Assembly (NCBI GenBank): GCA_964611575.1
Contig: CAZTAJ010000007.1
Coordinates: 1,847-65,846, forward strand
DNA: 64,000 bases
Direction: 5' to 3'
Source: an uncultured Verrucomicrobiota bacterium
Lineage (GTDB): Bacteria > Verrucomicrobiota > Kiritimatiellia > CAIKKV01 > CAITUY01
The number at the start of each line of letters is the position of its first letter. Position 1 is the stretch's first letter. Position numbers and translations under genes: made by a program. A model generated the notes under the pieces. The model ran no database searches. It saw only the letters and a list, made by a program, of their open reading frames with translations, and was not told the DNA's origin. Positions 9,429 through 48,745 of this stretch are shown piece by piece.

Positions 9429-9637
9429 ACCGCAAGCACCTCATCGCGCACAAAATGCAGTCTCACGATGCCGGGGAGGGCTTTGGGATCATCAAAATGA
9501 CAATCCACAGCCTCCCTCACGTTGCGGCGCAAGTCATCCAATGTGTCGGCCTGCGTATGGATGCCATAGCCCAGAGCAGATGCCGTATATCCTCCATCCA
9601 CATCGTCTTCCCGCACCTCGAAGATGAGTTCCTTCAT
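9425..9637 (-). CDS. hicB: Short HicB-like antitoxin
   Basis: MKELIFEVREDDVDGGYTA...IHTQADTLDDLRRNVREAV; coupled to hicA. Confidence 0.8.
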   Translation of the reverse strand: MKELIFEVREDDVDGGYTASALGYGIHTQADTLDDLRRNVREAVDCHFDDPKALPGIVRLHFVRDEVLAV

Positions 9638-9800
9638 GTCCGTATATTGCCACAAATGACCGCAAAGAAACAGCCGCTTTTGGGGCCTCTGAAGTTCACG
9701 CACCCCAACTACCTCAGTCAACCTGTGTCGCTACGTCTTCACCCGTCGGTTGGTTCTTCACAACGCCGTGAACTTCATTTTCTTGACGGGACGATGTGCG

Positions 9801-14769: not shown

Positions 14770-16443
14770 TCACGGCACACTGACTCCCGCGCCGCCGGAC
14801 ACGGGTTTGAGCACAACGTAGGTCGGCAGCCCCTTGACGCCAAAATGCTCCAGCGTCGCCCGCGTCGCCGCGTCATTCGGCCGTTCCGCCTGGCACTTTA
14901 CCACAACGAATCCCTGCAGGCTTTCCCGGACTCGCGCCTCTCGGAACGTGGTGGCGTCCATGGCCTCGCAGTTCTTGCACCAGGTGGCCCAGAAATCCAC
15001 GAATACGGGTTTCCCGGCGGCGTGCGCCAGGGCGACCACCCTGGCCCATGCCGCCGGTCCCTGGTCCGCCGACACGTGAACAATCCCGGCATCCGCCGGA
15101 CCCGCCGCACGCGGGCCGCGCCACCCCCGGACCGCCACCGAGGCGTAGTAGATGGCCAGGCCCATGATGAAGACCCCGAAACCTGCCTTGACCCGGGACA
15201 TCCAGACTCCGGGTTTGGGCATGAAGGCCAGCCCGGCCCCGGCCAGAGGCCATGGCAGCGCCATGCCGAGACCCAGTACGAAGGGCAACACCAACCCCAC
15301 GGCAGCCCCTGCCGCATACAGCGTGCCGGAAAGCAGCAGCACGGCGATAACCACTGGCGCCACGCATGCTCCGGCCAGAAGCGCCGCGATGCCCCCCATC
15401 CCCGCCGCCGCCACATAGCTGCCGCGCCGGGCGGGTGAACCGCCCGTCCCGCCCTGGAACCGCGTCAAGTCGATCTGAATCACATCGAACATGGCCAGCC
15501 CGAGAACCGCAAACACCACGGCAATGGCGGCATTGAACCCCGGGCTGGAATTCAACGCCCCGAACTGGGACCCGCTGAGCACCACCACCAGCCCGAGCAT
15601 TCCATAGACCACGGCGATACCCGCCCCGTAGGCCGCCCCAAGGCCGAACCCGCGCGCTCGCGAACTCCCCTGCGCCCCAACACCCAGGATTGCCAGATTG
15701 ACAGGGATCATGGGCAGCACGCAGGGCGTCAGATTCAACAGCAATCCACCCAGGAGAATGAGCACGACCGTCCATGTCGCGCCGAAACGGCGCAGAAACT
15801 CAGCCGGACTGGCGCTGAACAGCGCTGCAGTCTCACGGATCCGGATCCAAACGGATGAACTCCCCTGACTGCCGGCTCCGCGCCCGTGAAGCGCTTCGTC
15901 CAAGAACGCCGTGAACTCGGTTGCCCGGAGGTAGCCCACGGCGCGCTCTTCGATCTTCAGGGCGGCATCGAACGCCGGCCAGTCTCCGATGCCGTTCTCA
16001 ACGGGACGCGCCTCCGGCGGCACGTCGCGCACAACCGGTGCAAGCGGAAACAGGCGGGTCTGGGGAAAGAAACAGGTAGCCTCGTCGCACCCCTGATAAT
16101 CCACCTTCAAGACGAGTCCGGTTAACGTCGAAGCACCCATCCGGTAGCTCAGGACGAAATCGTTGGTGTAGACGTCGCGTTCATCGCCCGTGAAGGAATC
16201 GTGAATGCGCGTGGGTTTAGCCACGGCTGCGGAAACGAGCGCCAGGCCCCCCGTTTCCTGAACCCGGATATCGTCGGCATACAGGTGATGTCGCGCCGGA
16301 ACCGTGAACGTGACCGCCGCCACCCACCCGGTGCCGTCGGCGCTCGCAGACACGCCCACACCGAAGGGGTCCGCAACCCCCGCGCCGCTCCGGCCGGACA
16401 TCAACCCGACCACAGCAACTATCACTGCCCATCGTCGTCGCAT
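14770..16443 (-). CDS. dsbD: Thiol:disulfide interchange protein DsbD-like
   Basis: N-domain QGCDEATCF, membrane motifs NLTPCVLPMIP and GACVAP, thioredoxin WCKNC. Confidence 0.9.
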   Translation of the reverse strand: MRRRWAVIVAVVGLMSGRSGAGVADPFGVGVSASADGTGWVAAVTFTVPARHHLYADDIRVQETGGLALVSAAVAKPTRIHDSFTGDERDVYTNDFVLSYRMGASTLTGLVLKVDYQGCDEATCFFPQTRLFPLAPVVRDVPPEARPVENGIGDWPAFDAALKIEERAVGYLRATEFTAFLDEALHGRGAGSQGSSSVWIRIRETAALFSASPAEFLRRFGATWTVVLILLGGLLLNLTPCVLPMIPVNLAILGVGAQGSSRARGFGLGAAYGAGIAVVYGMLGLVVVLSGSQFGALNSSPGFNAAIAVVFAVLGLAMFDVIQIDLTRFQGGTGGSPARRGSYVAAAGMGGIAALLAGACVAPVVIAVLLLSGTLYAAGAAVGLVLPFVLGLGMALPWPLAGAGLAFMPKPGVWMSRVKAGFGVFIMGLAIYYASVAVRGWRGPRAAGPADAGIVHVSADQGPAAWARVVALAHAAGKPVFVDFWATWCKNCEAMDATTFREARVRESLQGFVVVKCQAERPNDAATRATLEHFGVKGLPTYVVLKPVSGGAGVSVP

Positions 16444-16466
16444 GAACCCTCGCTGCCGGTGAATAC

Positions 16467-16853
16467 TCAAGCCGCCGGCTGTTTCATCCTCGCAAGCACA
16501 ATCTGCAGGACTTCGCGCACAAAGGCGCACTCACATTCCAAGGGGCACGGGCTCAAGTCTTGCGCATGCAGGCAATGCCCGCCGCACTCCTTCTGGCCGA
16601 ACTTGCTGCCCTGGAACACGGGGCCCCTGTAAAGGTCGAAGAACTCACCGGCCCGGACGGACACCGTCGAGCCGCAGCCCTTATGCAAGTGGTTGAATAG
16701 AAAATAGCCGGCCTCCAGATGCTTCATCATGGCCTGGTAGCCCACCAGTGTCACCTCGGCATCGCCCAGAAAACCATCCCGGCTTGCCCACACATGCCCG
16801 CACCCTGAACACTGCTTGAACACCAGCCCCCCCCAATGCGAGACGAGCGGCAT
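16467..16853 (-). CDS. Cys-rich hypothetical protein, putative metal/Fe-S binding (start uncertain)
   Basis: FKQCSGC, FNHLHKGCGST, ECGGHC and CPLECECA; lies between ferritin and dsbD. Confidence 0.75.
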   Translation of the reverse strand: MPLVSHWGGLVFKQCSGCGHVWASRDGFLGDAEVTLVGYQAMMKHLEAGYFLFNHLHKGCGSTVSVRAGEFFDLYRGPVFQGSKFGQKECGGHCLHAQDLSPCPLECECAFVREVLQIVLARMKQPAA

Positions 16854-16913
16854 GGCAGCCGCTCGTCCTGCATGATCCTGTCGCGCCTCTACGGCCGGAG
16901 CCGCCCCGGCCCC

Positions 16914-17411
16914 CTACTCGGCCTTCGCCCGCTTTCCGAGCTGTTTGTCGATCATGAGGAGCGTCCCGGTGGAACTGCCCGCCATCTTCAACATCGTCAG
17001 AATATCGTTGTCGTTGGCTTCCTCTTCAACCTGTTCCTTGATATACCACTGCAAGAGCAGCTGAGTGGCATAGTCCTTCTCGCTTACCGCCAGATCCATC
17101 AACTCGTTGATCGACTGGGTGATGAAGCGCTCATGCTTGAGCGTGGCCTCGAACAGGCTCAGCAACGACTTGAATCCGGCCTTCGGCTTTTCGATCGCTC
17201 CCAATTCGACCGTAGCCCCCTGTTCCAGCAGGTACTTATAGAGTTTCTGGGCATGCGCCGTTTCTTCCTGATACTGCACGTAGAACCAACCACTGGTGCC
17301 CCGCAGGCCCAAGGCACTGGCATCGGCCGACATGGCGAGATATAGATACGCCGAGTACAGCTCTTTGTTGATCTGCCCATTCAAAGCTTTTTCGATTTTC
17401 TTTCCAATCAT
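16914..17411 (-). CDS. ftnA: Non-heme ferritin
   Basis: QINKELYSAYLY, EETAHA, HERFIT and WYIKEQVEEE ferroxidase residues. Confidence 0.94.
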   Translation of the reverse strand: MIGKKIEKALNGQINKELYSAYLYLAMSADASALGLRGTSGWFYVQYQEETAHAQKLYKYLLEQGATVELGAIEKPKAGFKSLLSLFEATLKHERFITQSINELMDLAVSEKDYATQLLLQWYIKEQVEEEANDNDILTMLKMAGSSTGTLLMIDKQLGKRAKAE

Positions 17412-17443
17412 AGTCGTTCCTTTCCGCAAGAGATTAGGACCCC

Positions 17444-17821
17444 TCACGCCTTCCACAAACCATGCACATTACAGAACTCACGCGCGCTCACGGCAGCGGC
17501 CGTCACGCCTTCAAAAACCGCGACGGGCGCCTGGCCCGGCTTCAGAAACCGTCGATGGACCTCATCGCCTGCGATCAATTCGATCCATTCAATGTAGTGC
17601 TTTTCCTCCATGGGATGCGGAACGCTGCCGACAGTGACCCGATAGCCATTGCTCAGCCGCTCGATGACCGGAGTGTGCTTTTCTTTGGAGGCATCGACCG
17701 TGTTCTCTTTGAACAACTTCATGGGTTTGCCGCAGCAAACCAGCTCACCCCCGCCGCCATGCAGAACTTCTGCAATGATACCACACGACTCGCATTTGAA
17801 AACTTCAAGTCGATCTGCCAT
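17444..17821 (-). CDS. dfx: Desulfoferrodoxin (superoxide reductase)
   Basis: KCESCG...LVCCG desulforedoxin domain; EKH, HPM, HYI and CNVHGLW. Confidence 0.95.
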
Positions 17822-17850
17822 GTTCGCCTCCTGTTCTATCTGTCTTCCGA

Positions 17851-18423
17851 TTACCAGTACTCTCCCGCGACCTCGAAAAATGCCCTCGGATGCGCGCACG
17901 CGGGGCAGGCATCGGGCGCGTGGGTCCCTTGATGCGTGTAACCGCAATGACGACAGCGCCATGTGACCGCGCGGTCACGCTGGAATACCCGTCCCGTTTC
18001 GATGTTCGCCGCCAACCCCAGATAGCGCTTCTGGTGCCCCTGCTCGGCCACCGCAATGGACTCGAAAATGGCCGCGATGTCGTCAAGACCTTCCTCACGG
18101 GCGACCCTGGCAAACCCCGGGTACATTTCCGACCATTCGTAATGTTCTCCGGCTGCTCCTGCCTTGAGATTATCTACCGTCGCCCCGACAACGCCTGCCG
18201 GAAATGCGGCTGTGATTTCGACCTCGCCGCCTTCGAGCAATTTGAAGAGCCGATGGGCGTGCTCGCGCTCCTGGTTGGAGGTTTCCTCGAAAATGTCGGC
18301 GATCTGAACAAAGCCGTCCTTCTTCGCCTTGCCGGCAAAAAAACTGTACCGGTTGCGCGCCTGCGACTCACCGGCAAAGGCCGTCAATATGTTGCGCTCG
18401 GTCCTCGTCCCCTTAACTTTCAC
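17851..18423 (-). CDS. rbr: Rubrerythrin
   Basis: [27 protein letters not shown], and C-terminal CRHCGY...CPACAHP. Confidence 0.96.
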
Positions 18424-26990: not shown

Positions 26991-29900
26991 CTATTCGCGT
27001 TCGCGGCGCAGAATCTCGTCGAGGAGCGCCCGAACCCGTGTTTCGGTGGCCGGAGAGCGCTCGGCGCTTTGACGGACAAGGTCCAGATTCTGCCGAGCCT
27101 CGCGATATCGCCCCAATCTAATCTGTGCCTCCGCCGCATTCAGATAGACCTCATGCCAGGCATAATCCCCTTGTTTGACGAGATTTACCGCCTTGGCGGC
27201 ATAGTCGCCCGCCGCTTTCAGATCCCCGGAGCGCAACGCCACCACGGCCGCCGTGTCGTACACGGCAAAGCCCCCCCCGCCCGCCTTAAGCAAATCGGGC
27301 AACAAAGCAACCGCTTTTCCAATAGTAGCAGGATCCTGGGCCAATGCATAGACCAGGTTGTTCAATATGTTCGGATCATCGGGATAGTCCTTGCGCGCTC
27401 CTTCCAGAACCCGCACAGCCTTGGTCGCATTGCCTTCAAGGCGGGCCGCTTCTGAAGCAATGAGATAGGTCCTAATGCGCGGCGGCTGCTTGGTGCCCGT
27501 GCGCCGCAGGGCATCCTCAAGTACATCCATGGCCTGGTCGGGCTGTCCCCGCTGGAAATAAGCATCGCCCAGCCTTTCATCCCAAACCCCTTCGTTCGGG
27601 TATTGAGCCTGCAGTCCCACCAAAGCACGAATAACATCGGCATCGGGTTTCACGTCCTTCGACTTGAGCCCGACGATGATCTTGTAGAATGGCCAAGGTT
27701 CCAGGGCCTGTTCGGCGCCGTCCCGGGCGCATCGTGCAGCCCACACCATGTCCTTGGACTTGATCGCACAGGCCAATCCCATCACATAGGCGGGAAGCAG
27801 GCCCTGACCCCGGGCGATCGCCTCGCGCGCGGCGGCTGAAGCGACCTCGCCCATTCCCTTGCGCAGCAGGAAATCCGAAGCCACGACCAAGGTGCCCGGC
27901 GCGCGGTCCCGTGCGGCAATGGCCTGGTTCACCATGGCCGCCGCGCCAGCCTCATCCTTGCGGGAGTTGACGCGCGCGATCAGTGCGGCCAGCCACAGGT
28001 TTCCATCCCACGGACAAGCCTTATACGCCTGCTCGACAATCTCCGGATCGCCGCCCGAAAGCGCCACCTCGATCCGCCGCAAAGCGATCCACCCCGGACG
28101 CAATGCCACGGCCCGTCTGGCCACCGCAAGCGCCTCCTTCTGGCGACCCGACTGGCGGGCCAGCAGAATCGTTAACTCATTGAGCGCCGTGGCCTGCTCC
28201 CCGGCATCGCGCCCTGCCGACTGCCAGGCGGCCGGGTCGCTGGTGGCCCCAGCCCCCCGTTCCCGGTACCACGCATCCTTGAGCGCACGAATACGCGCCA
28301 GGAATACGCTCTGCCGCGCGGGCATCGCCAGCCGCTCGCGCTCGTAGTCCGCCTCGGCCAGAACGCCGCCGCGCCACTGGATCACCCGCTCCGCCGGCGG
28401 CAGGAGTTCCGTCTGGCGGCGCGGAAGCTGCAGGGCGGTCAGACGTTCCGAGCCCGCCAACTTGTCGCCTTCCTTGATGCGCCCTGTGGCCATCAGGAAC
28501 CGCAGACGAATCGCAGGATCGGCGGGCACCTTCATCTGGCCGATCTTATGCAGTGCTTCCTCCGCCAACCCGAAATACCCCAGGGTCACCGCCGTCAATT
28601 CCATCAGTTCATCCGACGCGGGGAACATGCGCGCGGCATCGTCCAGGATGCCCATCGCATACGGCCCCATGTCGAGCGTCAGTACAACCGCGGCCATGTC
28701 GAGCCGGACCGTGAGCGACGGATGCGACTCATCACGGCTGTAGTCGCTGAACGCCTCGTAAGCCGACTCTGTCAGGCCCTGCGTCCGATAGAGTGCGGCA
28801 TGTTGGAGTTTGTAGACGCGGCGGCGCAAAGGATGGGTCTTCTCAAACTGATCGAGCTTGGCGTGAGCCTCATCCCAACGTTTCAGTTCTCCTAGAATCT
28901 GCACATAGACCGATTCCATCCGCGGCTCAAGTTTGCCCGCGCGTTCGAGCGTCTCGAGAATCGTCAAGCACTCGCGCAACCGGCGTTGGCGTTCGCCCGA
29001 TCCCGGCTGTGTCTGGAGTTCGGAGGCTTCGGGAATCGCGGCCCAAAGCCGGCGCCACGGAGCCAGATTGCCGACGGTGGCAAGAAAGGCCCGCGAGTCA
29101 ACAACCCCGCCCCCCCCCTGCGTCGCCAACCCCAGATAGGTCTGACGGAACGAAAACCACGCGGCGGCGAACTGGGTCGGCGCGATCACCAGGTCGGGGT
29201 CGCCTGGAAATCCCCTGCGCAACCGCCCATAGGCCCGCCAGCCCAAGTCGGCCCGGCCGGCCTTGAAGGCCCCTTCCATCACCTGGGACAGTTCGGCAGC
29301 CGTGAACGTATCCAGATGCTCCCGCAAGACGGTTTCCACCCGTGACTCCCACTCGGCTTCGCGTTTGGCCACCCATACGGCGACGAGCGGGGTCAAGAAC
29401 AAGCGGTCCATATCCTTACGAACCATGGCGCGCCGCAAGACGTTGGCAGCACCGTCGAAATCGTTCATCCGTATTCGCGCCGTCGCCGCAATCACCCCAT
29501 GCAAGGGGTTGGCGTAGGGCATGTCGGGATCAACCTTGGAAATCGTCTCCCACAACTCGCGAGCGGCAAGATAGGGAAACAAGCTCCGAATACGGTCCAG
29601 CAACCCGATGCCATACGATGCCTTGATCAACGCAGGGGATACTTCATCCGGCTTGTCGAGCATAGCCATGAACTCGGCCATGACCATCGCGACGCCCGGC
29701 CAGCCGCGAGTCTCAGCCGGCAGCCCGTTCATGACGGCCCGGGCTTCGTCAAACCGCTTGAGTTCCATCAGTGCCCGTGCCTCGAGCACGCGATCGCCAA
29801 GGGACCGTGCCTCGACCGGGCGCCGTCTGACATAGGCAAGCGCTTCGTCCAACCGACGGCGCTCGAACAGGATGGTCGCCATGTCCGTATGCAGGGCCTC

Positions 29901-30989
29901 GTTGCGGGGATTGATGGCCAATGCCGCCTTCACCGCCCGTTCGGCGGTCGCCACATCGGCCCGAACCAGGGCCTCGGCCACGCCTCGGATCATCTCGGCA
30001 CGATGAAAGGGCCTGAGGCGGAATGCAAAAAAAGCCGTCACCGACCCAACGATGGCCACCGCCAGCACTGGCCGCCACCAGAGAAACACCATCCGCCAAA
30101 AGACCGGCCATCGTTTGAGTTTCTCCTCCCATTCACCAACGTCGTCATTGATCTCGTGCAAGATCCGCCGCCGTTGCCGCCAGCGAATCGCCTGCCGAGC
30201 CAATACCGCATCAAGATAGATCAACACCACCCCGATGACCATGAAGACACCCATCGTGTCGTGGAGCACCTTGGCGTTCCACTCTGCCGGCCGGTCGGTG
30301 CCAAACCACACAATGCCCGAAATGCGCAGCACGTTGAGCAGAACCACCTGGACCATCCCGATCCCCAACAACCATGCCACGTTCACCCAGCGGAAGCGCA
30401 TCAGCAATGCCACCCCGAGCCCGCAAAAGAACACCGTGGTGGCCGTCTTCATGCCGCTACAAGACTCGGGCACGCCGAACACGCGTACCCCGGAGCGCAG
30501 AAAGAGTCCATCACCCCACACCCGCATGTTCAAGGATTGCAGCAGGTACTCGCTGAGTTTGACGGAGACCTTCTGCATTCCCAATTGCAGGGGGCCAAAT
30601 ACCTGACTGGGCATTGGGTGGATCCAATAGAGGATGAACAGGCCCAGCGCCACATCACGAACATACCGCCCCGGCAGCGCCCACGCCAGGCACGCGAACA
30701 GGACCAGCAGCATCCCCAACCACTCAAGTTGATGGATGGGCACAACGATGCCGACAACCACCGCCATCAGTCCAGCCACCGCCAAACCGGCAAGCCGGCC
30801 GGCCGGCAGCATCACTTCACGCTCGCCCCGCGGTTTCGGGCGTGCCGCCAGCAAGACCGCAAACAAGACGCCCAGCGTGATTGAAGTCGTGCCGCCGGGA
30901 CCGCCCGCCAAGCGGGTGAGGTTGGCCGCCAGCCAGACGGCCGCCAGCATCATGGAGGCCAGAAGGACCACGCGTTTCGAGGCAGGCAT
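26991..30989 (-). CDS. Exosortase family protein fused to a long TPR-like helical region
   Basis: Multi-TM N-terminus with VPESCSG, LNVLRI and VLHD (Cys/Arg/His triad), then about 1000 aa of TPR-like repeats (e.g. LGDAYFQRGQPDQA, ILNNLVYAL). Start set just after the upstream stop. Confidence 0.85.
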   Translation of the reverse strand: MPASKRVVLLASMMLAAVWLAANLTRLAGGPGGTTSITLGVLFAVLLAARPKPRGEREVMLPAGRLAGLAVAGLMAVVVGIVVPIHQLEWLGMLLVLFACLAWALPGRYVRDVALGLFILYWIHPMPSQVFGPLQLGMQKVSVKLSEYLLQSLNMRVWGDGLFLRSGVRVFGVPESCSGMKTATTVFFCGLGVALLMRFRWVNVAWLLGIGMVQVVLLNVLRISGIVWFGTDRPAEWNAKVLHDTMGVFMVIGVVLIYLDAVLARQAIRWRQRRRILHEINDDVGEWEEKLKRWPVFWRMVFLWWRPVLAVAIVGSVTAFFAFRLRPFHRAEMIRGVAEALVRADVATAERAVKAALAINPRNEALHTDMATILFERRRLDEALAYVRRRPVEARSLGDRVLEARALMELKRFDEARAVMNGLPAETRGWPGVAMVMAEFMAMLDKPDEVSPALIKASYGIGLLDRIRSLFPYLAARELWETISKVDPDMPYANPLHGVIAATARIRMNDFDGAANVLRRAMVRKDMDRLFLTPLVAVWVAKREAEWESRVETVLREHLDTFTAAELSQVMEGAFKAGRADLGWRAYGRLRRGFPGDPDLVIAPTQFAAAWFSFRQTYLGLATQGGGGVVDSRAFLATVGNLAPWRRLWAAIPEASELQTQPGSGERQRRLRECLTILETLERAGKLEPRMESVYVQILGELKRWDEAHAKLDQFEKTHPLRRRVYKLQHAALYRTQGLTESAYEAFSDYSRDESHPSLTVRLDMAAVVLTLDMGPYAMGILDDAARMFPASDELMELTAVTLGYFGLAEEALHKIGQMKVPADPAIRLRFLMATGRIKEGDKLAGSERLTALQLPRRQTELLPPAERVIQWRGGVLAEADYERERLAMPARQSVFLARIRALKDAWYRERGAGATSDPAAWQSAGRDAGEQATALNELTILLARQSGRQKEALAVARRAVALRPGWIALRRIEVALSGGDPEIVEQAYKACPWDGNLWLAALIARVNSRKDEAGAAAMVNQAIAARDRAPGTLVVASDFLLRKGMGEVASAAAREAIARGQGLLPAYVMGLACAIKSKDMVWAARCARDGAEQALEPWPFYKIIVGLKSKDVKPDADVIRALVGLQAQYPNEGVWDERLGDAYFQRGQPDQAMDVLEDALRRTGTKQPPRIRTYLIASEAARLEGNATKAVRVLEGARKDYPDDPNILNNLVYALAQDPATIGKAVALLPDLLKAGGGGFAVYDTAAVVALRSGDLKAAGDYAAKAVNLVKQGDYAWHEVYLNAAEAQIRLGRYREARQNLDLVRQSAERSPATETRVRALLDEILRRERE

Positions 30990-30996
30990 GCGCGTA

Positions 30997-32559
30997 TTAG
31001 AAGTCATGCTGGTATGTGAGCGTAGCGCCCACCGTGTCACGTTCGAAATCCAAGGAAGCGTCGGCACCCGATTGCACCAGATGCTCCGCGTAATAGAACG
31101 CAGCCAGGTTGTCGGTGAAACGCTGGGTAAGTCCTACATTGACCGCCCACGTGGTGTAGTCTTGGGAGATGAACACCTGGTCGGCGTTCACGTCGCCTGT
31201 GGCGACTTCCCCATTATTGCGCACCGTATGAGCCACATTGGCGACCGCCGTCACGTTGCGCGACAATACGCGCGTCATCCCCAACTGGTTGAGCCAGTCG
31301 CTGTACTCCGACACCATGGCAAGGCGGGGCTGCACCGTCTCGTACAACGTCAAGTATGACCACGACCACGTATTGTTGTGCCACTCGATCGCATACCGGT
31401 ACTGGTCGATGATCTCAAGCCCCGCCTCGAAGCCCCCCTCCTGCCGGCGCGAGTAACCCATCGAGTGCGCCGTCCGATCTGTCAGCATGGACCGCAGCGA
31501 GGCAAGCCCAATCACGGAATCCGAACTGCCATCCTGTTCGTAAGGCCCGGGGTCGACCAGACTGGCCGACGAATAACCGCCGCCGAGGTTAAGCGTGGTG
31601 TTCTCGCTGAGATCGGCGCCGATAAAGCCCAGATAGTCCTGCTGGAATTGGTTTCCACGCAACGATTCATCGAACTCCCGCCAGGTGAAATCGGCCCGGG
31701 CACCGACCATGAAAACGGGGTTGACTTGATTCTGATATACGAGCGAATGCCGGGTGACGGTGCTGCGCGCCTGGTTGAGATCGTTGTCCTGCGGCCAGGT
31801 ATCCAGACGCATGAAGGAATACGCAAGCTCCTGACCCTTGGCCAGGAGCCAGTCAAGGTCGAGCCCCAGCGTATTCTGGAAGTAGCGGTACTTGTCACCC
31901 CTCAGGTTGTCGCTGCGCCCGCGGCGGTCCACATAGTCGGCCGTGTACGACGGGGTGTCGTAAAGGCGGGCCCGGACAAACTTGGTAATGTCGAACTCGG
32001 TTGACAAGGTGGCGGAAACATCCGCCCCCTTGCTCCCATCGCTCCGTGTGTAGGCATTGGCCGTCACATTGCGACCGTTGAAACTGCCCGCCGCACCGTC
32101 GCGCGTTACACTCATGGTAAAAGCGCCCATGCGGGCCGTCATGCCTTCACTCACAATGTTCACGTCCAACTGGTCATCCTCGGTGCCCGCGGGAAAGTAG
32201 CTGTACGAGATGTTGACCGACAGATCGAGGTCCATGTACTTGTTGATCAGCAGGTAGTTCTGCATGTTCAACGTCGAGACCATCGGAAATTCGAGACCAT
32301 CCTCGCGTGTCCGGCCCAGGCGGCCCTCTTCCAGCGTGGTAGCACCCGCTCCCGAGGTGCGCGTGTAACGCACGCCCACGGACTGCGCAAACGCCCAATC
32401 AGAATAGAAACTGCCGAACCGTATGTTGGCGTTGTCGGGAATGACCAGGTCACGGTAGTTGTCGAACCGGAGCATTTGACCCCGCGCCGCCCCTGGCGCC
32501 AGGCTGAGCACACACACACCCGTCAATATGGTCAGAACCCGACAGGGCGATCGACTCAT
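30997..32559 (-). CDS. Outer-membrane beta-barrel protein of the exosortase/EPS locus
   Basis: Signal peptide, alternating aromatic beta-strands and C-terminal LTYQHDF. Confidence 0.75.
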   Translation of the reverse strand: MSRSPCRVLTILTGVCVLSLAPGAARGQMLRFDNYRDLVIPDNANIRFGSFYSDWAFAQSVGVRYTRTSGAGATTLEEGRLGRTREDGLEFPMVSTLNMQNYLLINKYMDLDLSVNISYSYFPAGTEDDQLDVNIVSEGMTARMGAFTMSVTRDGAAGSFNGRNVTANAYTRSDGSKGADVSATLSTEFDITKFVRARLYDTPSYTADYVDRRGRSDNLRGDKYRYFQNTLGLDLDWLLAKGQELAYSFMRLDTWPQDNDLNQARSTVTRHSLVYQNQVNPVFMVGARADFTWREFDESLRGNQFQQDYLGFIGADLSENTTLNLGGGYSSASLVDPGPYEQDGSSDSVIGLASLRSMLTDRTAHSMGYSRRQEGGFEAGLEIIDQYRYAIEWHNNTWSWSYLTLYETVQPRLAMVSEYSDWLNQLGMTRVLSRNVTAVANVAHTVRNNGEVATGDVNADQVFISQDYTTWAVNVGLTQRFTDNLAAFYYAEHLVQSGADASLDFERDTVGATLTYQHDF

Positions 32560-40956: not shown

Positions 40957-41853
40957 TCAGGACCGGCCATCGGCATATAACCGGTCGGCGTGATAGGATG
41001 AGCGCACCATGGGGCCCGATGCCACGCCGTGGAACCCCAGACGGGTCGCCTCCCGGGCATACGCCGTAAACGTCTCAGGCGTCACGTAGCGCTGCACCGG
41101 CGCGTGCCGGCGCGACGGGGCGAGATATTGCCCGATCGTCAGCAGATCGCAGCCGGCATTCCGCAAATCGTTCATGGCCTCGAACAACTCGTCGTCGGTC
41201 TCGCCCAACCCGACCATCAGGCCCGATTTGACGGTCAGCCGCGGCGTCCAGGCTGCCGCAAAACGCAGGACATCCAGCGAGCGCTCATACTCCGCAGCCG
41301 GGCGGATCGTCCGTTGCAGGCGCCGCACGGTTTCAAGGTTATGATTGAAGACATCCGGCCCTGCCGCCAGCACGGTCGTCAGATCAACCCCTCGCCCGAG
41401 GAAATCGGGCACGAGCACCTCGACTTTGGCGGCCGGCAAGCGTCTCCGGAGCGCGCCGATGGTCGCGGCAAAGAGCCCCGCCCCACCGTCCGACAGATCG
41501 TCACGGGTGACGCTGGTAACCACCACGTGGCGCAGCCCCAGTCGGCCGGCTGCCTCGGCTACGCGATCCGGCTCACCGGGATCGGGCAGCGACGGATGCC
41601 CGGTGGTGACCGCGCAAAACCGGCAGTCCCGCGTGCAGACATCGCCAAGGATCATAAAGGTGGCCGTGCCGCGACTGAAACATTCGTGCTGATTGGGGCA
41701 CTGCGCTCCCTGGCAGACCGTGTGAAGTGCCGTTTGACTGAGGAGTCGGCTCACCTCCGCCGTGCTGCCATGGGCGCCGATCCGCACGCGGATCCAAGGG
41801 GGCAGCCGTCCTGCACCGCCATTCGACACGTCAGCTTTTTCGTTCTCAGTCAT
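40957..41853 (-). CDS. lipA: Lipoyl synthase
   Basis: CQGAQCPNQHEC, CTRDCRFC, NHNLETV, GQYL and RSSY. Confidence 0.96.
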   Translation of the reverse strand: MTENEKADVSNGGAGRLPPWIRVRIGAHGSTAEVSRLLSQTALHTVCQGAQCPNQHECFSRGTATFMILGDVCTRDCRFCAVTTGHPSLPDPGEPDRVAEAAGRLGLRHVVVTSVTRDDLSDGGAGLFAATIGALRRRLPAAKVEVLVPDFLGRGVDLTTVLAAGPDVFNHNLETVRRLQRTIRPAAEYERSLDVLRFAAAWTPRLTVKSGLMVGLGETDDELFEAMNDLRNAGCDLLTIGQYLAPSRRHAPVQRYVTPETFTAYAREATRLGFHGVASGPMVRSSYHADRLYADGRS

Positions 41854-41876: not shown

Positions 41877-43013
41877 ATGAGCCCGAACGCCAAACCCGGA
41901 ATCCCGCGCCGCGATTTCCTGGCGGCCGGGGTTGCCTGCGCCGGGCTGGCCTGCGGACGCGCCTGGGCGGATCCCAACCGGGCAAGGACGCTCCCGGCCA
42001 CCCCGCCTCACGAGGCCCAATTCTACGAGATGCTGGATGATAAGTCCGTGCGCTGCGGGCTCTGTCCACGACATTGCAGGGTGCCTGACGGCCGGCGCGG
42101 TTACTGCCGCGTCAGAGAGAATCGCGGCGGCCGGTACGTAACACTCGTGTACGGACAGTGCTGCAGCGCCAACCTCGACCCTGTTGAAAAGAAGCCATTT
42201 TTCCATGTTTACCCCGGGACGAAGGCCTTTTCGATCGCCACAGTCGGGTGCAACATCCACTGCAAGTTCTGCCAGAACTGGGACATCTCGCAGGCCAACC
42301 CGGAAGACACCGCCACGCCCTACCGCCGCCCGGAGGAGATCGCCGAGGCGGCCGCGACATCGGGTGCCAGGACTCTGGCCTACACTTACAGCGAGCCGAC
42401 CATCTTCTACGAGTACATGGCCGACTGCGCCCGCGCCGCACAGAACCGCGGAATCGACAGCCTAGTCGTCTCCAACGGCTTCATCGCCGAGGCTCCGCAG
42501 AGAGCCTTGATCCCGCTGGTGAAGGCCGTGAAGGTCGATCTCAAGGCCTTTAACCCGTCGTTCTACAGCGAGGTGTGCGATGGCATGCTTGAACCGGTGC
42601 TGGCCAGCCTGAAACGCCTGGCCGTCTCAGGCGTGTGGATCGAGATCGTCTGCCTGCTGATCCCCACCCTGAACGACAACCCCGACGAAACGCGACGCAT
42701 GGCCGCCTGGGTGGCGAAAGAGCTCGGACCCCACGTCCCTCTGCATTTCACCCGCTACCACCCGACCTACCGGCTGAAGAATCTCCCGCCTACTCCTGCG
42801 GAGACGCTGCTCAGAGCCCGAGCCATCGCCATGGAAGAAGGCTGCCGATTTGTCTACTCGGGCAACGTCCCCGGACTGGAAGGGCAGGACACGATTTGCC
42901 CCGCGTGCAAGAAGCCGGTGGTTCGGCGGTACGGCAACCGAGTACTCGAGAACACACTCAAAGCCGGCGCTTGCGGGGCCTGCGGCGCCGTCATTCCCGG
43001 CGTATGGGGGTGA
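41877..43013 (+). CDS. amrS: AmmeMemoRadiSam radical SAM enzyme with a Tat-like signal peptide
   Basis: CGLCPRHC, DPVEKKP, GCNIHCKFCQNW and YTYSEP; N-terminal RRDFL...AWA. Confidence 0.92.
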   Translation: MSPNAKPGIPRRDFLAAGVACAGLACGRAWADPNRARTLPATPPHEAQFYEMLDDKSVRCGLCPRHCRVPDGRRGYCRVRENRGGRYVTLVYGQCCSANLDPVEKKPFFHVYPGTKAFSIATVGCNIHCKFCQNWDISQANPEDTATPYRRPEEIAEAAATSGARTLAYTYSEPTIFYEYMADCARAAQNRGIDSLVVSNGFIAEAPQRALIPLVKAVKVDLKAFNPSFYSEVCDGMLEPVLASLKRLAVSGVWIEIVCLLIPTLNDNPDETRRMAAWVAKELGPHVPLHFTRYHPTYRLKNLPPTPAETLLRARAIAMEEGCRFVYSGNVPGLEGQDTICPACKKPVVRRYGNRVLENTLKAGACGACGAVIPGVWG

Positions 43014-45246
43014 ACGGTTCGCACCCGATGCACGCCAGGCAGCACAGCACGACCGTAACCCCGCAAGCACCGGTGATGCCGGCCACCGGCACCAGCACAA
43101 CACCGCCTAGCAACGCCCCGAGCATGGAACCGCCATAATCCGCCACATCCGTCCATGCCGCCGCCTGCCCCGCATCCATCCCCCGGGCGCGCAGCATGCC
43201 GGCGACCACGACGAACTGCGCAGCCACCACCGCACCCGTCAAGGCAAGCATGCCCCCGATCCACACGGCCGGGCGCGGCACCGTCATGAGTGCCGATCCG
43301 TTCCAGGCCAGTGCGGCCGCCAGTGCGGCGAGCGCCAGCAGCAGAACCGTCGCCACCCCACGGGCCACACGCTCCGAGGCAGATTCCAGCCGACTGGCCG
43401 CACATGCCCCCAATGCCGACCCGCCCATAAACAGCGCCACCAGAAGACCATACTGAACGTACAGATATCCCTGGATGCCCTGAATCAGATACAGGAGGAT
43501 AACCTCAAGCGTCACACCCCCGAACCCGGTCGCCACCATCGCCACCACGGCTCTCCGCCGTCGCAACGGTGGCACGGCCCACACCAGCGCCGCGACCAGC
43601 ACACACATGCCCGTGATCAGCGTGCCGGGCCGAATGCCCTCCAGGACATTCAATACCCGGTCCACTCCCGATGCGCTGAACCGGCTCCAAAGCACGAGGG
43701 ACTGGCGATACGTCACCGGCCGCCACAGGGTATTGACCGGCACGGCCGCGCTTTGCAGGCTGCGCTCCACGATGCGAATCTTGGCGGGATCAAGTTCGTC
43801 GGCATCAAGCAGGTATTCCGGGCGATAGTAGCGGGTCGGAACAGGCGCGGCCAGGCTGCGCCGGTAAAGCGTATCCCGGTCAACGGTCAGCGAACTCTCA
43901 CGGGCACCCGCGACCAACTGCAGCGGGCTTCCCGCGGTGACCCGCACCGTATCGAATACCGTCGCCAAGGTTCGGTAGACGCTGGCGGCCACACGGCGCG
44001 CATCGGGTCCCAGACGTTCTGAAGCCTCCACCGAGGTCCATACCACACCGTCTGGCGCCAGACGCGCCTTGACCGCTTCGTAGAACTCGCGGGTGAAGAA
44101 TCGGTTGGAGGCGCCGCTGAGGGGTTCCGGCGCGCGAATGATGATGAGATCGAAAACTTCACGACTCTGGCGCACGAAGAGCGGGCCATCCTCATGAAGG
44201 GACCGTACCCGCGAATCGCACAGCACCGCCGCCATCTGGTCCGGAACCACACGCCGGAGCAGTCGTTTGATCCCAGGATCGAGTTCAACGTGAACGACCC
44301 GTTCCACCGGATACTTCAACAGCTCCGGTACATCCGCCGTTGGATCGCCGCCCAGCAGCAGGATTCTTCTGGCGGAAGGATGCTGGGCCATGATGGGATG
44401 CAAGGCGTGCTCCGCGGCAATCGGGTCAGGCAGGCTGAACAACACGTGACCATCGCCATACAGGGTGAACTGCCCGGCCCGTTCCACGAGTTGGAGATTC
44501 TGGTAACGGGTGTCAACGGAAGCGACCATCCGCCACGGTTCTGCCGTCATCGCCCCAATTCCCTGAAGGCGCCAGGCGGCGGTGCGCGATTCCAGCGCAG
44601 TCCAGCATGGCGGACATAGCCCGGCCGCCAGCGTCAATCCGGCCAGCACGCCCAGCATCCGTCGCGGAAGCCCCTGTGCCGTGATGGCCGCCGCATAGAC
44701 GAAGACGGCGGCGCCCAGGGACATGATCTGCCAGGCATTCAGGCAACCGGCCAGGACGAACGTCATCAACAGGCCTCCCAGCATCGACCCGATGGCCTCG
44801 GCGGCGTAGAGCCGGCTGATGGCGCGCCCGTGGCCACGCCGCGCCAATGCCTCGCAGCCCGGCGGCAGCAATCCGCCCACGGCCAGACACACGGGGAAGA
44901 TAACGATGGCTGTAAGACCGGCGGTTGCGGCCAACGAGAGATACTCCCCCGCCCCCACACCAAGAATGTGACGCGCGCCGCGAATCAGGAGCACGGCCAG
45001 GGGGAGCCATCCGGCAAGCAACCCCAATCCCACGGCAACACCGCCCGGCAACCGCCGGCCGGTCAGCCGCGCCGCCGCGCGGCGCCCCACCCCGGCACCG
45101 ACCGCCACCGCGGCCAGCCACAGTCCCAGCATCAAGCCGATCGTCAATTCATTGCCGGAACAGACTGCCAGCAGTTCGCGGGTGAGCACCGCCTGCGCCA
45201 GCAGGGCGCCAAACCCGACCGCCAGCATGACAACGATGATGTCCAT
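42991..45246 (-). CDS. Membrane protein with a central spermidine-synthase-like domain
   Basis: N- and C-terminal TM bundles (TRELL..GNEL, LYAAEAIGS, DYGG) around TRYQ, LLLGG, VELDP and FFTREFY motifs. Confidence 0.82.
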   Translation of the reverse strand: MDIIVVMLAVGFGALLAQAVLTRELLAVCSGNELTIGLMLGLWLAAVAVGAGVGRRAAARLTGRRLPGGVAVGLGLLAGWLPLAVLLIRGARHILGVGAGEYLSLAATAGLTAIVIFPVCLAVGGLLPPGCEALARRGHGRAISRLYAAEAIGSMLGGLLMTFVLAGCLNAWQIMSLGAAVFVYAAAITAQGLPRRMLGVLAGLTLAAGLCPPCWTALESRTAAWRLQGIGAMTAEPWRMVASVDTRYQNLQLVERAGQFTLYGDGHVLFSLPDPIAAEHALHPIMAQHPSARRILLLGGDPTADVPELLKYPVERVVHVELDPGIKRLLRRVVPDQMAAVLCDSRVRSLHEDGPLFVRQSREVFDLIIIRAPEPLSGASNRFFTREFYEAVKARLAPDGVVWTSVEASERLGPDARRVAASVYRTLATVFDTVRVTAGSPLQLVAGARESSLTVDRDTLYRRSLAAPVPTRYYRPEYLLDADELDPAKIRIVERSLQSAAVPVNTLWRPVTYRQSLVLWSRFSASGVDRVLNVLEGIRPGTLITGMCVLVAALVWAVPPLRRRRAVVAMVATGFGGVTLEVILLYLIQGIQGYLYVQYGLLVALFMGGSALGACAASRLESASERVARGVATVLLLALAALAAALAWNGSALMTVPRPAVWIGGMLALTGAVVAAQFVVVAGMLRARGMDAGQAAAWTDVADYGGSMLGALLGGVVLVPVAGITGACGVTVVLCCLACIGCEPFTPIRRE

Positions 45247-45260
45247 TGGATACGACTTGA

Positions 45261-45350
45261 GTAGCCCGAATTCAGGAGTCAGGAGTCAGAATCCGTAATT
45301 GAACAACACGGAATCTTCCTTCTGATTCCTGGATTCTGAATTCTGACTAC
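45261..45350. repeat. Inverted pair of heptamer arrays, 31-bp imperfect arms
   Basis: Left arm gtagcccgaattcaggagtcaggagtcagaa; reverse complement of right arm gtagtcagaattcagaatccaggaatcagaa. Confidence 0.85.
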
Positions 45351-46921
45351 TTGGCTTTATCGATGGCCGGTTCCTCAAAGGCAAACACCGTGAACACGTG
45401 GAGTTCGGTGGCGGGGTCCTTCCAGGCGGCGGATTCGAGATGGGCTTTCTGACGGCAGAGTTCGTCCAGGAAATCCTCCTTGGTCGAAAAGTGCTCCCAT
45501 ACCTGCGGCAGAAACAACCCGCTGCGCCACCCCTTCCGCACGAGAACGCCATGTTCATGTTCGCGGATTTCAGCGGCGCTTTTCACGCGACGCATTGGCG
45601 AAAGCACGGAAATCTCGATGTGGGTGCGCGGTAACTCGGCCGCCGTGAGGGTGGGGAAGCGATTGTCTTCCACCGCGGCCGCCACCGCCAGGCGCGCCAC
45701 CGCCAGATACAACGGATCGCGCGGCTCGGTGGTCCCGATGCACCCGCGCAGTTGCCCCTTCTGCGTGAGTGTGACGAACACCGCGCCCGGAGCCGTAAGC
45801 TCCCCCTCGGGCACCTCAAATTGGGCGGCTTTGCCCGTTTTGAGCTGCGACTCGATCGCCTGGCGGGCAATGTCGAGCAGTCGTTTCTGACTCGCATCGG
45901 TGAGCCGAAACGGTTCGTGCCCGACCGGATTCGTTTGGTTTGTCATGGTGCCTCCTGTTGCCTGCGTTGATGTGTCTGTTGCCGCCCCTCCCCCGGCACC
46001 GCCGGATTCAAAGAACCCGATGGCCGCATACGAGACTGAGTTTTCATAGTCGTCCACGACATCGCCCGACATGGCCAGGCCCAACACCTGTCCGTGGACA
46101 AGATGCGCCTGGCTCCTCAGGGTTGCCATCAGGACCCGAATCGGGTTCTGCCCGCAGATCGTGTCATGCGTCTCACGGCAACGCCGGTCGAATCCGGCCA
46201 GGTCCAGCGCCGCAACGCGTGACGCGGCCTCGGATAACCAGGCTTTCAGCGTGGCCTCCCGATCCGTCGTAAAGGGCACAAAATCATAGTTGGGCCCATA
46301 GTGGGTGAAGTCCGAAGACGCCACCATCAAGGTCCCCGTGCCTGCGTAAGCGGCCAGCGCACCGGCCACGCAGGCGACGGTCTGCGCCTCCATTGCCCCG
46401 CAAATCAGCGGCACCAACCGGAACGGTCCCACGGCGCGTTGCAGCAACGGTAGATGGACCTCAATCGCATGTTCCTGACGGTCCGCCCCGGCCGCCTCCG
46501 TGAAACCCGGCATGCCCCGCAATGCGCTGCACACGGCCTGATCAACCGGCACATTGCCCAGCGGGGTCCGATAGGCCGTCAATGCGGCATCGGGCAGCGA
46601 CACGCCTGCAAAAGCAGCGCGATGGCTGGGCGCCAGGATGAAGATGCGATCCACCTGCCCGGTCGTCAGCCGTCGATAGACACCGGCGGCGCACCGGCCG
46701 GAGTAGACATAACCGGCGTGGGGCGCCACGGCCGCCACCAAGCGCCCGGTCACCGCAGGCGAAACGGCGGAATGCAGCAATCCATCGACCTGCACCTCCA
46801 ATGCCACCGGCAGGCGTTCGTAAAAGGCGCCCGCCACGGCGGGCGGACGCACATCGGCCGAACCGGTCATGACGCACACCGCTGCCGCCACGATTCCAAC
46901 GAGGCATGAATGCGTTTGCAT
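45347..46921 (-). CDS. amrB: AmmeMemoRadiSam AmrB (MEMO)-AmrA (AMMECR1) fusion with a Sec-like signal peptide
   Basis: MEMO motifs RPPAVAGAFY, PHAGYVYSG, EHAIEV, SSDFTHYG and TICG; AMMECR1 motifs GAVFVTL, LRGCIG and FLPQV; GGAGG RBS. Confidence 0.92.
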   Translation of the reverse strand: MQTHSCLVGIVAAAVCVMTGSADVRPPAVAGAFYERLPVALEVQVDGLLHSAVSPAVTGRLVAAVAPHAGYVYSGRCAAGVYRRLTTGQVDRIFILAPSHRAAFAGVSLPDAALTAYRTPLGNVPVDQAVCSALRGMPGFTEAAGADRQEHAIEVHLPLLQRAVGPFRLVPLICGAMEAQTVACVAGALAAYAGTGTLMVASSDFTHYGPNYDFVPFTTDREATLKAWLSEAASRVAALDLAGFDRRCRETHDTICGQNPIRVLMATLRSQAHLVHGQVLGLAMSGDVVDDYENSVSYAAIGFFESGGAGGGAATDTSTQATGGTMTNQTNPVGHEPFRLTDASQKRLLDIARQAIESQLKTGKAAQFEVPEGELTAPGAVFVTLTQKGQLRGCIGTTEPRDPLYLAVARLAVAAAVEDNRFPTLTAAELPRTHIEISVLSPMRRVKSAAEIREHEHGVLVRKGWRSGLFLPQVWEHFSTKEDFLDELCRQKAHLESAAWKDPATELHVFTVFAFEEPAIDKAK

Positions 46922-47053
46922 GGCCATCCCTCCTGCGCACAGCATACACCGACACCGACGGGCATCAAGACTGGAGGCCATTCGACGCGCAACTCCATCC
47001 TTTCCTCTCCATCGGCTCGTGCTAGACTGCGCCCTATCCAGCGGGAGGCGAGC

Positions 47054-47320
47054 ATGAAACAACACAGTCACATCATCATCGGCATTCACATCACAGACCG
47101 GGTCAAGCGGGCGGCCGCCGTACAGAAAGTGTTCACACAGTTTGGCGTACACATCAAGACGCGCCTCGGCTTGCACGATCTCACCGCATCATCGTCTTCA
47201 CCAAATGGGATCATTATTCTCGAGATGGTGGGCAACGAACGTCAGTGTCTGTCCATCCTCAAGAGACTCACCGCCATCCCCGGCGTGGAAGCAAAGAAGA
47301 TGGTCTTCAGCCACGACTGA
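47054..47320 (+). CDS. Small ACT-like protein, TM1266/Fe-hydrogenase-regulator-like
   Basis: IIGIHITDR..AAAVQKVFT.FG..IKTRLGLHD...GIIILE; GGGAGG RBS. Confidence 0.75.
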   Translation: MKQHSHIIIGIHITDRVKRAAAVQKVFTQFGVHIKTRLGLHDLTASSSSPNGIIILEMVGNERQCLSILKRLTAIPGVEAKKMVFSHD

Positions 47321-47563: not shown

Positions 47564-48745
47564 TCACTCCTTGTCCAGCCGCGTGCTCAGCGCAAGCAGG
47601 AACTCGCGGTTATCCAAAGAAATATAACGCATGACACCGCCCATGCGACTGAAGGTCTTGCAGTACCGAAGGTAGTAGGCCGGATTATCCATGGGAGGTT
47701 CGCCGTCCCTCTGCCAGTCCCAACGTGACTCGGCCAGGTCAACGACCGCGATGAAGTGCCGGTCAATCCGTGCGCCTTGCTGAAGGCTGAGGTTCTGCGC
47801 CATGGATAGCGCCTTCTCGAAAATCATCGGCGACATGACGGCCGAGCCCACCGACAGGTACACGCCATCCTGAATGCGGCTGACATTGTGCGCGAACGCC
47901 AGGAAGTCCCGTTCTGCCGTGCGCCCAATCGCCGCGCCATGATTCATCGGGTGATTGTAAATGATGTCGTGCCCGAACATGGGATGCCCCGTGAAGGGCA
48001 CCCCCAGGCGATACGCCGCGGCCTGCGCGCTGCAGGCTTTGTGGGGATGCGACACGGCCATCCACCCCGTTTTCAAACCGAACTGCCGGATGACGCCAAG
48101 CAGGTCGAGCGCCGCCGCCGCGCGATCCAGAGGATCAACGGGTGATGGGTGTTGGGTGTCAGGTGATATGTCCTGCTTGTTCCCATCATCCTCCCTCCGG
48201 CCACCTCCCACCTCCCACCTCCCACCTGCTTCCCGCAGCTCCGCCTCCGCGGGAATCCGCAGCCCCTCCTGCTCGATAAGCTTGCCGACCGCCTCTCCGT
48301 ACCCGAGCCCTTCATAGGCGCCAACGACAATGGCCAGATTGATGAAAAAGCCGGTTTCCTTCCAGATCCCGAACTCTCCCCTTTCCACACCCCCGCGCAC
48401 GTCTTCACTGCTCATGCCCTGGTAGGCAAACTCCCAGTCATGGATGATGCCCGCCCCGTTGGTAGCCAGGTGAGTCACCCACCCGCGCTCCATAAGCCGA
48501 ATCAGGACCGGCGCCAGCCCGTTCTTGATGGTATGGGCGCCAAACGCAAGGATCACCGGCCGCCCGGCCAAGCGAGCCGCCTTGATGCGATCGGCGACCT
48601 CCGCGATCACGGCCAGTTTATCGGCCGGCAATGCCCCGACCGGATGATCGGCCGACACGAAGTTGGTCGCGACACACAGTTTGTTCTGGCGCGAACCAAG
48701 TGGTTTGATGCCCAAGGCGTGACGGTCAAGTTGCGGATAAGGCAT
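47564..48745 (-). CDS. Conserved hypothetical protein, deoxyhypusine-synthase-like fold
   Basis: GAHTIKNGL, LATNGAGIIHDWE, GHDIIY and GSAVMSPMIFEKALS. Confidence 0.65.
   Translation of the reverse strand: MPYPQLDRHALGIKPLGSRQNKLCVATNFVSADHPVGALPADKLAVIAEVADRIKAARLAGRPVILAFGAHTIKNGLAPVLIRLMERGWVTHLATNGAGIIHDWEFAYQGMSSEDVRGGVERGEFGIWKETGFFINLAIVVGAYEGLGYGEAVGKLIEQEGLRIPAEAELREAGGRWEVGGGRREDDGNKQDISPDTQHPSPVDPLDRAAAALDLLGVIRQFGLKTGWMAVSHPHKACSAQAAAYRLGVPFTGHPMFGHDIIYNHPMNHGAAIGRTAERDFLAFAHNVSRIQDGVYLSVGSAVMSPMIFEKALSMAQNLSLQQGARIDRHFIAVVDLAESRWDWQRDGEPPMDNPAYYLRYCKTFSRMGGVMRYISLDNREFLLALSTRLDKE
48140..48228. repeat. In-frame pair of opposed heptamer arrays
   Basis: gggtgat-gggtgtt-gggtgtc-aggtgat ... 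ccacctc x3 + ccacctg. Confidence 0.8.

Follow-up and report, generated by a model that had tools for sequence, protein, structure and literature searches.

AmmeMemoRadiSam systems comprise a Memo protein (AmrB, TIGR04336), an AMMECR1 protein (AmrA, TIGR04335) and a radical S-adenosylmethionine (SAM) enzyme (AmrS, TIGR04337). In humans, relatives of Memo and AMMECR1 are linked to disease. Since radical SAM enzymes depend on SAM and on a strong reductant, they are treated as residents of the cytoplasm. Pyruvate formate-lyase activating enzyme (PFL-AE), for example, is a cytoplasmic radical SAM activase; its substrate is a protein, and it takes its electrons from flavodoxin. Here we describe an AmmeMemoRadiSam locus in a 64,000-nucleotide stretch (hereafter the window) of contig CAZTAJ010000007.1, from an uncultured Verrucomicrobiota bacterium of the class Kiritimatiellia. 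Its AmrS begins with a twin-arginine translocation (Tat) leader, its AmrB-AmrA fusion (AmrBA) begins with a Sec-type signal peptide, and the gene between them encodes a polytopic membrane protein with a spermidine-synthase-like (SpeE-like) domain, hereafter memSpe. Comparison with relatives shows that both leaders are real, conserved and under selection, and that the three genes co-occur across many phyla. We propose that they probably form an export-adapted AmmeMemoRadiSam module at the outer face of the cytoplasmic membrane.

The window proteins exceed the cut-offs of all three defining families. AmrS scores 374.8 bits against TIGR04337 (cut-off 220) in a match that begins at residue 48 and covers model positions 2-333 of 349, and AmrBA scores 204.9 bits against TIGR04336 (cut-off 26) and 174.6 bits against TIGR04335 (cut-off 99). 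The radical SAM cysteines are present, together with the Memo motifs and the LRGCIG motif of AMMECR1. Among solved structures, the nearest relative of AmrS is PFL-AE (PDB 3C8F, 8FO0; E value 4.2e-7 over AmrS residues 121-318), from which AmrS differs by extra N- and C-terminal cysteine motifs and by its leader. The departure from canonical systems lies elsewhere. Canonical proteins have no leaders, as the negative control shows (a canonical AmrA/AmrB/AmrS cluster from genome G060 of this class, with no leader on any protein), whereas the window type has a Tat leader on AmrS and a Sec leader on AmrBA, adds the membrane protein as an obligatory companion, and has an AmrS group that stands apart on the tree. 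Our literature search brought up no description of radical SAM enzymes or Amr systems that are exported, although the main comparative study of Memo and AMMECR1 (Burroughs et al. 2019) lay outside the search and may mention exported forms.

The locus has the following features:

41877..43013, plus strand: amrS, AmmeMemoRadiSam radical SAM enzyme, 378 amino acids (aa) (TIGR04337, PF04055; CX3CX2C motif at C125/C129/C132)
41877..41969, plus strand: twin-arginine leader of AmrS, residues 1-31, with n-region, RRDFL, h-region, basic c-region residue and AWA before D
42991..45246, minus strand: memSpe, polytopic protein of 751 aa, with 7 transmembrane helices, a spermidine-synthase-like domain and 7 more transmembrane helices (PF01564)
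43687..44556, minus strand: SpeE-like domain of memSpe, residues 231-520, predicted to face outward, with degenerate catalytic motifs (1UIR/3ANX alignment, Foldseek, loop charge)
45347..46921, minus strand: amrBA, Memo (AmrB, residues ~25-301) fused to AMMECR1 (AmrA, ~347-514), 524 aa (TIGR04336, TIGR04335, PF01875, PF01871)
46856..46921, minus strand: Sec-type signal peptide of AmrBA, residues 1-22, ending GSA before D (read from the sequence; orthologue leaders are hydrophobic, many then with a lipobox-like cysteine motif)
46929..46934, minus strand: AGGAGG ribosome-binding site, 7 nt 5' of ATG 46921 (direct reading)

The amrBA fusion gene lies 2.3 kb from amrS. memSpe follows amrBA on the same strand at a distance of ~100 bp, and its 3' end overlaps the 3' end of amrS by 23 bp. 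A preliminary description of this DNA had reported these three elements, with the membrane gene in the middle and overlapping amrS, and we found them so arranged.

Leaders on AmrS and AmrBA

AmrS starts at ATG 41877 with MSPNAKPGIPRRDFLAAGVACAGLACGRAWA, followed by D. The anatomy of this leader, P-RRDFL-AAGVACAGLACG-R-AWA before D, agrees with the Tat consensus of [ST]-R-R-x-F-L-K, a moderately hydrophobic h-region and an AxA site; the h-region spans ~14 residues, and the residue before RR is P in the window copy and S or T in most orthologues. The segment HEAQFYE, just before the first cysteine motif, belongs to the N-terminus of the TIGR04337 family. Between ATG 41877 and HEAQFYE there is no in-frame ATG, GTG or TTG, so translation of this family N-terminus entails translation of the leader, which is therefore part of the protein.

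To follow the leader across relatives we used 61 genomes of the class (the window genome and 60 relatives), in which the leader-bearing orthologue group is hereafter called type-1 AmrS. The motif [ST]RRxF[LIV] plus a short hydrophobic stretch occurs in all 22 of 22 type-1 loci, while the remaining leader residues vary freely. Alignments with orthologues (55-76% identity) set in at residues 2-24, and those with paralogues (38-48% identity) mostly not before about residue 45. In the database, 100 of the 120 best homologues carry the RR motif, and the remaining 20 are gene calls or fragments whose first residue lies within or past the leader; by name, the homologues come from Kiritimatiellae and neighbouring Verrucomicrobiota and Lentisphaerota. 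Across 48 aligned homologues R11, R12 and F14 are invariant, as are C125, C129 and C132 (GCNIHCKFCQN in the window), and 27 of the 48 match Pfam TAT_signal at an E value of at most 1 (best 3.1e-6). TIGR01409 gave no match to the AmrS leader alone. Read by eye, many orthologues have a lipobox-like cysteine motif (L-A-G-C) after RR.

AmrBA begins at ATG 46921, behind AGGAGG, with MQTHSCLVGIVAAAVCVMTGSA followed by DVRPPAVAG. The reading frame is open to 47176, and its upstream part overlaps an opposite-strand gene of the CPF_0552 family. An internal ATG (MTGSADVRPP) would drop the leader, and no comparable ribosome site precedes it. Every readable AmrBA encoded beside memSpe has a hydrophobic leader (9/9, 13/13 and 29/29 in three sets), many of these leaders in relatives contain a lipobox, and AmrA-only neighbours of memSpe have lipoprotein-type leaders too. 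The preliminary description had read both signals, a twin-arginine leader with h-region and AxA site on AmrS and a Sec-like peptide ending GSA-D before the Memo domain of AmrBA, and had named true starts downstream of them as one case that would undo its proposal. The start at ATG 41877 with RR in every orthologous locus, and the AGGAGG start with the orthologue leaders, bear out both signals: the true starts include the leaders.

Variants of the AmrS leader occur outside the class. A KR form, S/T-K-R-[DE]-F-[LI], is conserved in Ignavibacteriota, Bacteroidota and Chlorobiota (loci L109, L111, L115, L116, L120, L122, L137, L147 and L157). In one Omnitrophota locus (L124, ~9186-11612, minus strand) AmrS and AmrBA apparently share one open frame, ~800 residues of it past the first cysteine motif, with one Sec-like leader in front. 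Such a single frame would place all three Amr domains in one compartment.

The window genome encodes TatC (185.8 bits) and two TatA/B genes, one of which adjoins TatC. TatC is present in 23 of 23 genomes with type-1 AmrS; it is also found in 58 of the 61 genomes overall, so its presence does not discriminate. Tat is described as carrying folded proteins with bound cofactors (PMC10924467). Elsewhere in the window genome (G000:C25, locus L080, 395-964, plus strand), a protein that starts TRRDFLK, with a hydrophobic stretch and ferredoxin-type cysteine motifs, adjoins a Fer4_5 protein. This organism thus appears to use canonical Tat leaders on iron-sulfur proteins.

memSpe, its spread with AmrS and AmrBA, and split relatives

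Co-occurrence of signal-bearing AmrS, signal-bearing AmrBA and the membrane protein had been named as a check, and the three do co-occur both within the class and across phyla. Type-1 AmrS is encoded by 23 of the 61 genomes, and memSpe (presence threshold, at least 33% identity) is found in 22 of these 23 and in none of the 38 others; the genomes are related and hence not independent samples, and many assemblies are incomplete. In one genus, amrS and memSpe are each confined to the same 5 of 17 genomes. amrBA is linked to amrS in 10 of 20 related contexts, and the adjacency of amrBA and memSpe is kept where amrS is on another contig.

Scanning one genome per species yielded 360 memSpe relatives, the best 80 of which underlie our cross-phylum counts. 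These 80 loci come from Verrucomicrobiota, Planctomycetota, Omnitrophota, Ignavibacteriota, Bacteroidota, Elusimicrobiota, Gammaproteobacteria and others, and 53 have amrS or amrBA within 7 kb. Neighbour clustering of the 80 loci gave no further conserved neighbour of memSpe, the next largest cluster covering 8 loci. Together, these comparisons show that the genes for AmrS, AmrBA and memSpe co-occur across many phyla.

memSpe resembles membrane-bound spermidine synthase (PRK03612), to positions 32-436 of which its N-terminal helices and SpeE fold align. It differs in having a second seven-helix bundle after the domain and in the replacement of both acidic aminopropyl motifs. The PF01564 match covers residues 282-406 (64.4 bits, E value 1.3e-17), and the scores fall below the equivalog cut-offs of PRK03612 (126.6 versus 472), PRK00811 (98 versus 260) and TIGR00417 (75.4 versus 249.6). 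Consistent with this layout, an AlphaFold2 model (predicted local distance difference test score, pLDDT, 89.1; predicted template modelling score, pTM, 0.89) contains seven helices, a SpeE fold and a second helical bundle. Foldseek with the whole model returned 1uir at an E value of 2e-11; the matches listed were all SpeE chains, and target-normalised template modelling (TM) scores to soluble SpeE (1UIR, 3O4F, 1INL) were 0.72-0.76. An MFS-like membrane bundle is hinted at only by sub-threshold matches: MFS_1 reached 24.7 and 25.8 bits (cut-off 33.4) in 2 distant homologues and matched none of 17 aligned members.

The charge of the loops suggests how memSpe is oriented. Across 17 orthologues, lysine and arginine number 289 in the predicted inside loops and 39 in the outside loops, a strong bias that places the SpeE-like domain outside. 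The domain is therefore predicted to face outward.

The catalytic motifs of this domain have degenerated. Aligned with 1UIR and 3ANX, GGGDG reads GGDPT and DxxDP reads RAPEP in the window copy; across the family, GGG[DE]G becomes GGNPxG and DxxDP becomes [RHLMNIV]xPEP. Since both aminopropyl motifs are replaced, memSpe should not be an aminopropyltransferase. Relative to solved SpeE, two acidic residues persist, one that binds the ribose (VExDP) and one by the adenine (EDG). In SpeE the acidic residues of GGG[DE]G and DxxDP hold the aminopropyl amine; the pair that persists here is compatible with a domain that may bind an adenosyl ligand.

Relatives of this locus apparently split AmrS in two. 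In other families of the class, in Gammaproteobacteria and in Elusimicrobiota, a leaderless AmrS that starts at the first cysteine motif is encoded beside memSpe, and the RR signal lies on an open reading frame of 52-70 aa directly 3' of amrS. In 8 of 10 gaps examined, this small protein ends [HKR]EAD[FY]Y...HDLAG, the opening strand of full-length AmrS. This is most simply read as a split enzyme: its first strand, on a Tat peptide, would take the rest through Tat. The arrangement recalls the Tat hitchhiker co-export of HybO and HybC (Rodrigue et al. 1999, as cited in PMC10924467), where the signal likewise sits on a separate protein; here the carrier is a peptide that seemingly donates the first strand of the enzyme. 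No hitchhiking is needed in the window, since the signal is fused to AmrS.

The memSpe proteins of split loci are longer, at 944-1420 aa. Their extra part is an FMN-binding domain, joined in 3 of 4 tested by a NapH-type iron-sulfur module; Fer4_5 and FMN_bind also occur in the memSpe relative P0164. In the fused forms a single additional helix stands ahead of the FMN domain, in agreement with the predicted outward topology of memSpe. FMN_bind and Fer4_5 are likewise the parts of the NosR- and NapH-like, ApbE-flavinylated conduits, which, according to PMC8238504, move electrons to extracytosolic enzymes and have an extracytosolic FMN-binding domain. The terms radical SAM, Memo, AMMECR1 and spermidine do not appear in the main text of that source.

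Leader-bearing and split AmrS group together. In a tree of 78 rows, built by a quick maximum-likelihood search with midpoint rooting only and labels assigned partly by eye, 67 leader-bearing or split rows (RR, KR, Sec-like, split) fall on one side of a branch with a support of 95 (SH-aLRT) and 10 canonical rows on the other; the 1 remaining row, first labelled canonical, groups with the leader-bearing and split forms.

A proposed extracytoplasmic module and its alternatives

Combining these observations, we propose the following mechanism. AmrS would fold and gain its iron-sulfur clusters in the cytoplasm and cross by Tat on its own RR leader. The Memo-AMMECR1 fusion would cross unfolded by Sec, to be lipid-anchored afterwards in many relatives. 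Outside, the two would meet the 14-helix memSpe, whose degenerate, outward SpeE-like domain may serve as a docking or adenosyl-ligand-binding platform and whose membrane bundle would be the sole link of the module to the cytoplasm. In sister lineages, the FMN-binding domain and the NapH/NosR-like iron-sulfur module would extend this link and carry electrons outward. AmrS could then carry out radical chemistry of the PFL-activase kind, with AmrBA, or a molecule held by AmrBA, as the substrate. Its SAM might come from memSpe, leave the cytoplasm together with AmrS as a bound ligand, or be regenerated cycle by cycle; some radical SAM mutases regenerate SAM in this way. Localisation, outward topology, the physical complex, the electron route and, most of all, the SAM source are inferred here.

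An extracytoplasmic system, as first suggested for this locus, is the best reading of the co-occurrence, the leader-inclusive starts, the Tat genes, the predicted outward domain and the fusions to FMN_bind and NapH-like modules, and we hold it to be probable. The accompanying suggestion, that the membrane protein supplies or senses SAM, is a hypothesis. Several observations weigh against it. The localisations of AmrS, AmrBA and the memSpe domain all come from prediction, and the tree has the rooting and labelling described above. The window leader scores 10.4 bits against Pfam TAT_signal (PF10518), under the cut-off of 22.7. Four AmrS proteins (L121, L124, L141 and L152; Planctomycetia, Omnitrophota) carry strongly hydrophobic leaders of a Sec-like kind that lack both RR and KR, and an iron-sulfur cluster assembled beforehand is difficult to square with passage through Sec. 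AlphaFold2 draws memSpe residues 692-742 as one helix, where the assumed topology needs a hairpin. Domain search found neither FMN_bind nor Fer4_5 in the window memSpe, so that it is without the module that the sister forms share with NosR and NapH-like conduits, and the window likewise has no gene for an FMN-binding or NapH-like partner. The association also has gaps: genome G009 (91% complete) has type-1 AmrS, with memSpe and AmrBA not found; G013 and G036 have leader-bearing AmrBA, with the other two genes not found; and 27 of the 80 memSpe loci have no Amr gene in the DNA available around them. Finally, neither SAM nor low-potential reductants are known to occur outside the cytoplasm.

Whether the exported proteins also turn over SAM outside is a separate matter. 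Radical SAM catalysis in the periplasm, with a transporter-like memSpe that brings SAM or holds an adenosyl ligand and a NapH-like wire in the place of flavodoxin, is a tentative proposal that we think rather doubtful as it stands. Unlikely in our view is a module that is exported and performs no SAM-dependent radical turnover outside, with AmrS acting once on pre-bound SAM or contributing to a Memo-AMMECR1 complex as its iron-sulfur redox or scaffold subunit, and memSpe as only an anchor or electron link. Such a module would suit the want of any SAM source known outside the cytoplasm, the lost catalytic motifs of the SpeE-like domain, and the gain in relatives of an electron conduit and no recognisable SAM carrier; Tat, moreover, moves folded, cofactor-bound proteins, as PMC10924467 has it. 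Yet CX3CX2C and the AmrS motif T170-Y171-x-E173-P174, a similar form of which occurs in the canonical enzyme, are invariant in the exported clade, and that clade is old, spans many phyla and has kept these residues. From invariant motifs kept through an old multi-phylum clade, we argue that exported AmrS retains radical SAM activity.

Two further explanations would leave AmrS in the cytoplasm. AmrS might sit on the cytoplasmic face of the membrane, with the RR leader as an uncleaved tether or a vestigial, chaperone-binding Tat remnant, for which NarG is a precedent, and with memSpe coupling it to an exported AmrBA. SAM and reductant are cytoplasmic, four AmrS relatives have non-RR leaders, the window leader is sub-threshold for TAT_signal, and PMC8238504 ascribes to the iron-sulfur portion of NapH-like modules the transfer of electrons from a donor across the membrane. 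Several features of the leader make this explanation improbable: the [ST]RRxF[LIV] motif has the canonical form and does not vary, RR is followed by AxA-type sites or lipobox-like cysteine motifs, and an h-region of ~14 residues is short for a membrane helix. Two relatives argue against it as well, the L124 locus with AmrS and AmrBA in one open frame behind one leader, and the split forms, whose separate Tat peptide completing AmrS is sensible only for co-export. Far less credible is that the leaders are start-codon artefacts and that true starts downstream yield ordinary cytoplasmic Amr proteins. The internal amrBA ATG does give a normal Memo N-terminus, and gene callers have shortened 20 of 120 AmrS homologues; but amrS offers no in-frame start before HEAQFYE, AGGAGG stands 7 nt before ATG 46921, and leader character is kept over orthologues of 55-76% identity and across phyla despite sequence variation.

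If the extracytoplasmic module holds true, a large, old, multi-phylum and export-built branch would overturn the cytoplasm-only view of radical SAM enzymes, and SAM and low-potential electrons would have to cross the membrane by routes as yet unknown. The unsolved trio of Memo, AMMECR1 and radical SAM enzyme would gain a defined place, at the outer face of the cytoplasmic membrane, and a fixed membrane partner, narrowing the search for its substrate. Periplasmic radical SAM catalysis, should it prove real, would be a first extracytoplasmic SAM economy and a foothold on the role of Memo and AMMECR1.

Transcripts and surrounding genes

Metatranscriptome contigs from 4 runs of 1 study match the locus with at most one differing letter. 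Contigs from 3 runs bridge the amrBA-memSpe junction (window 44820-46173), and the amrS 5' end is uncovered. The bridging contigs are compatible with co-transcription of amrBA and memSpe; they carry no information on strand, on starts or on whether the transcript is a single one, and DNA carry-over is possible.

Divergent from amrS lies lipA (40957-41853, minus strand), which encodes lipoyl synthase, itself a radical SAM enzyme. Only 23 bp separate the two start codons, so both promoters must sit within the neighbouring gene. lipA adjoins amrS in 12 of 20 related contexts and in 2 of 80 cross-phylum loci, and for this reason we take the pairing as inherited gene order.

On the other side, 5' of amrBA, are a gene for a small CPF_0552-family, TM1266-like protein (window 46910-47320, plus strand; 84.8 bits, cut-off 85) and one for a GSU2086-family protein (47564-48745, minus strand; 329 bits). 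Neither family was found near the Amr/memSpe system in the other genomes (20 related contexts, 80 cross-phylum loci). The FMN_bind matches elsewhere in the window genome resemble Rnf/Nqr subunits by their neighbours and are unlinked to the locus (judged from open reading frame starts only).

Farther away, a gene for a DsbD-type thiol-disulfide transporter adjoins ferritin, desulfoferrodoxin and rubrerythrin genes (window 14770-18423, minus strand), a cluster that fits an anaerobe with an envelope redox supply. At 26991-31067 (minus strand) the window also encodes a 1358-aa protein with an exosortase (EpsH) domain and many TPR repeats, next to polysaccharide export, chain-length and sugar-transferase genes.

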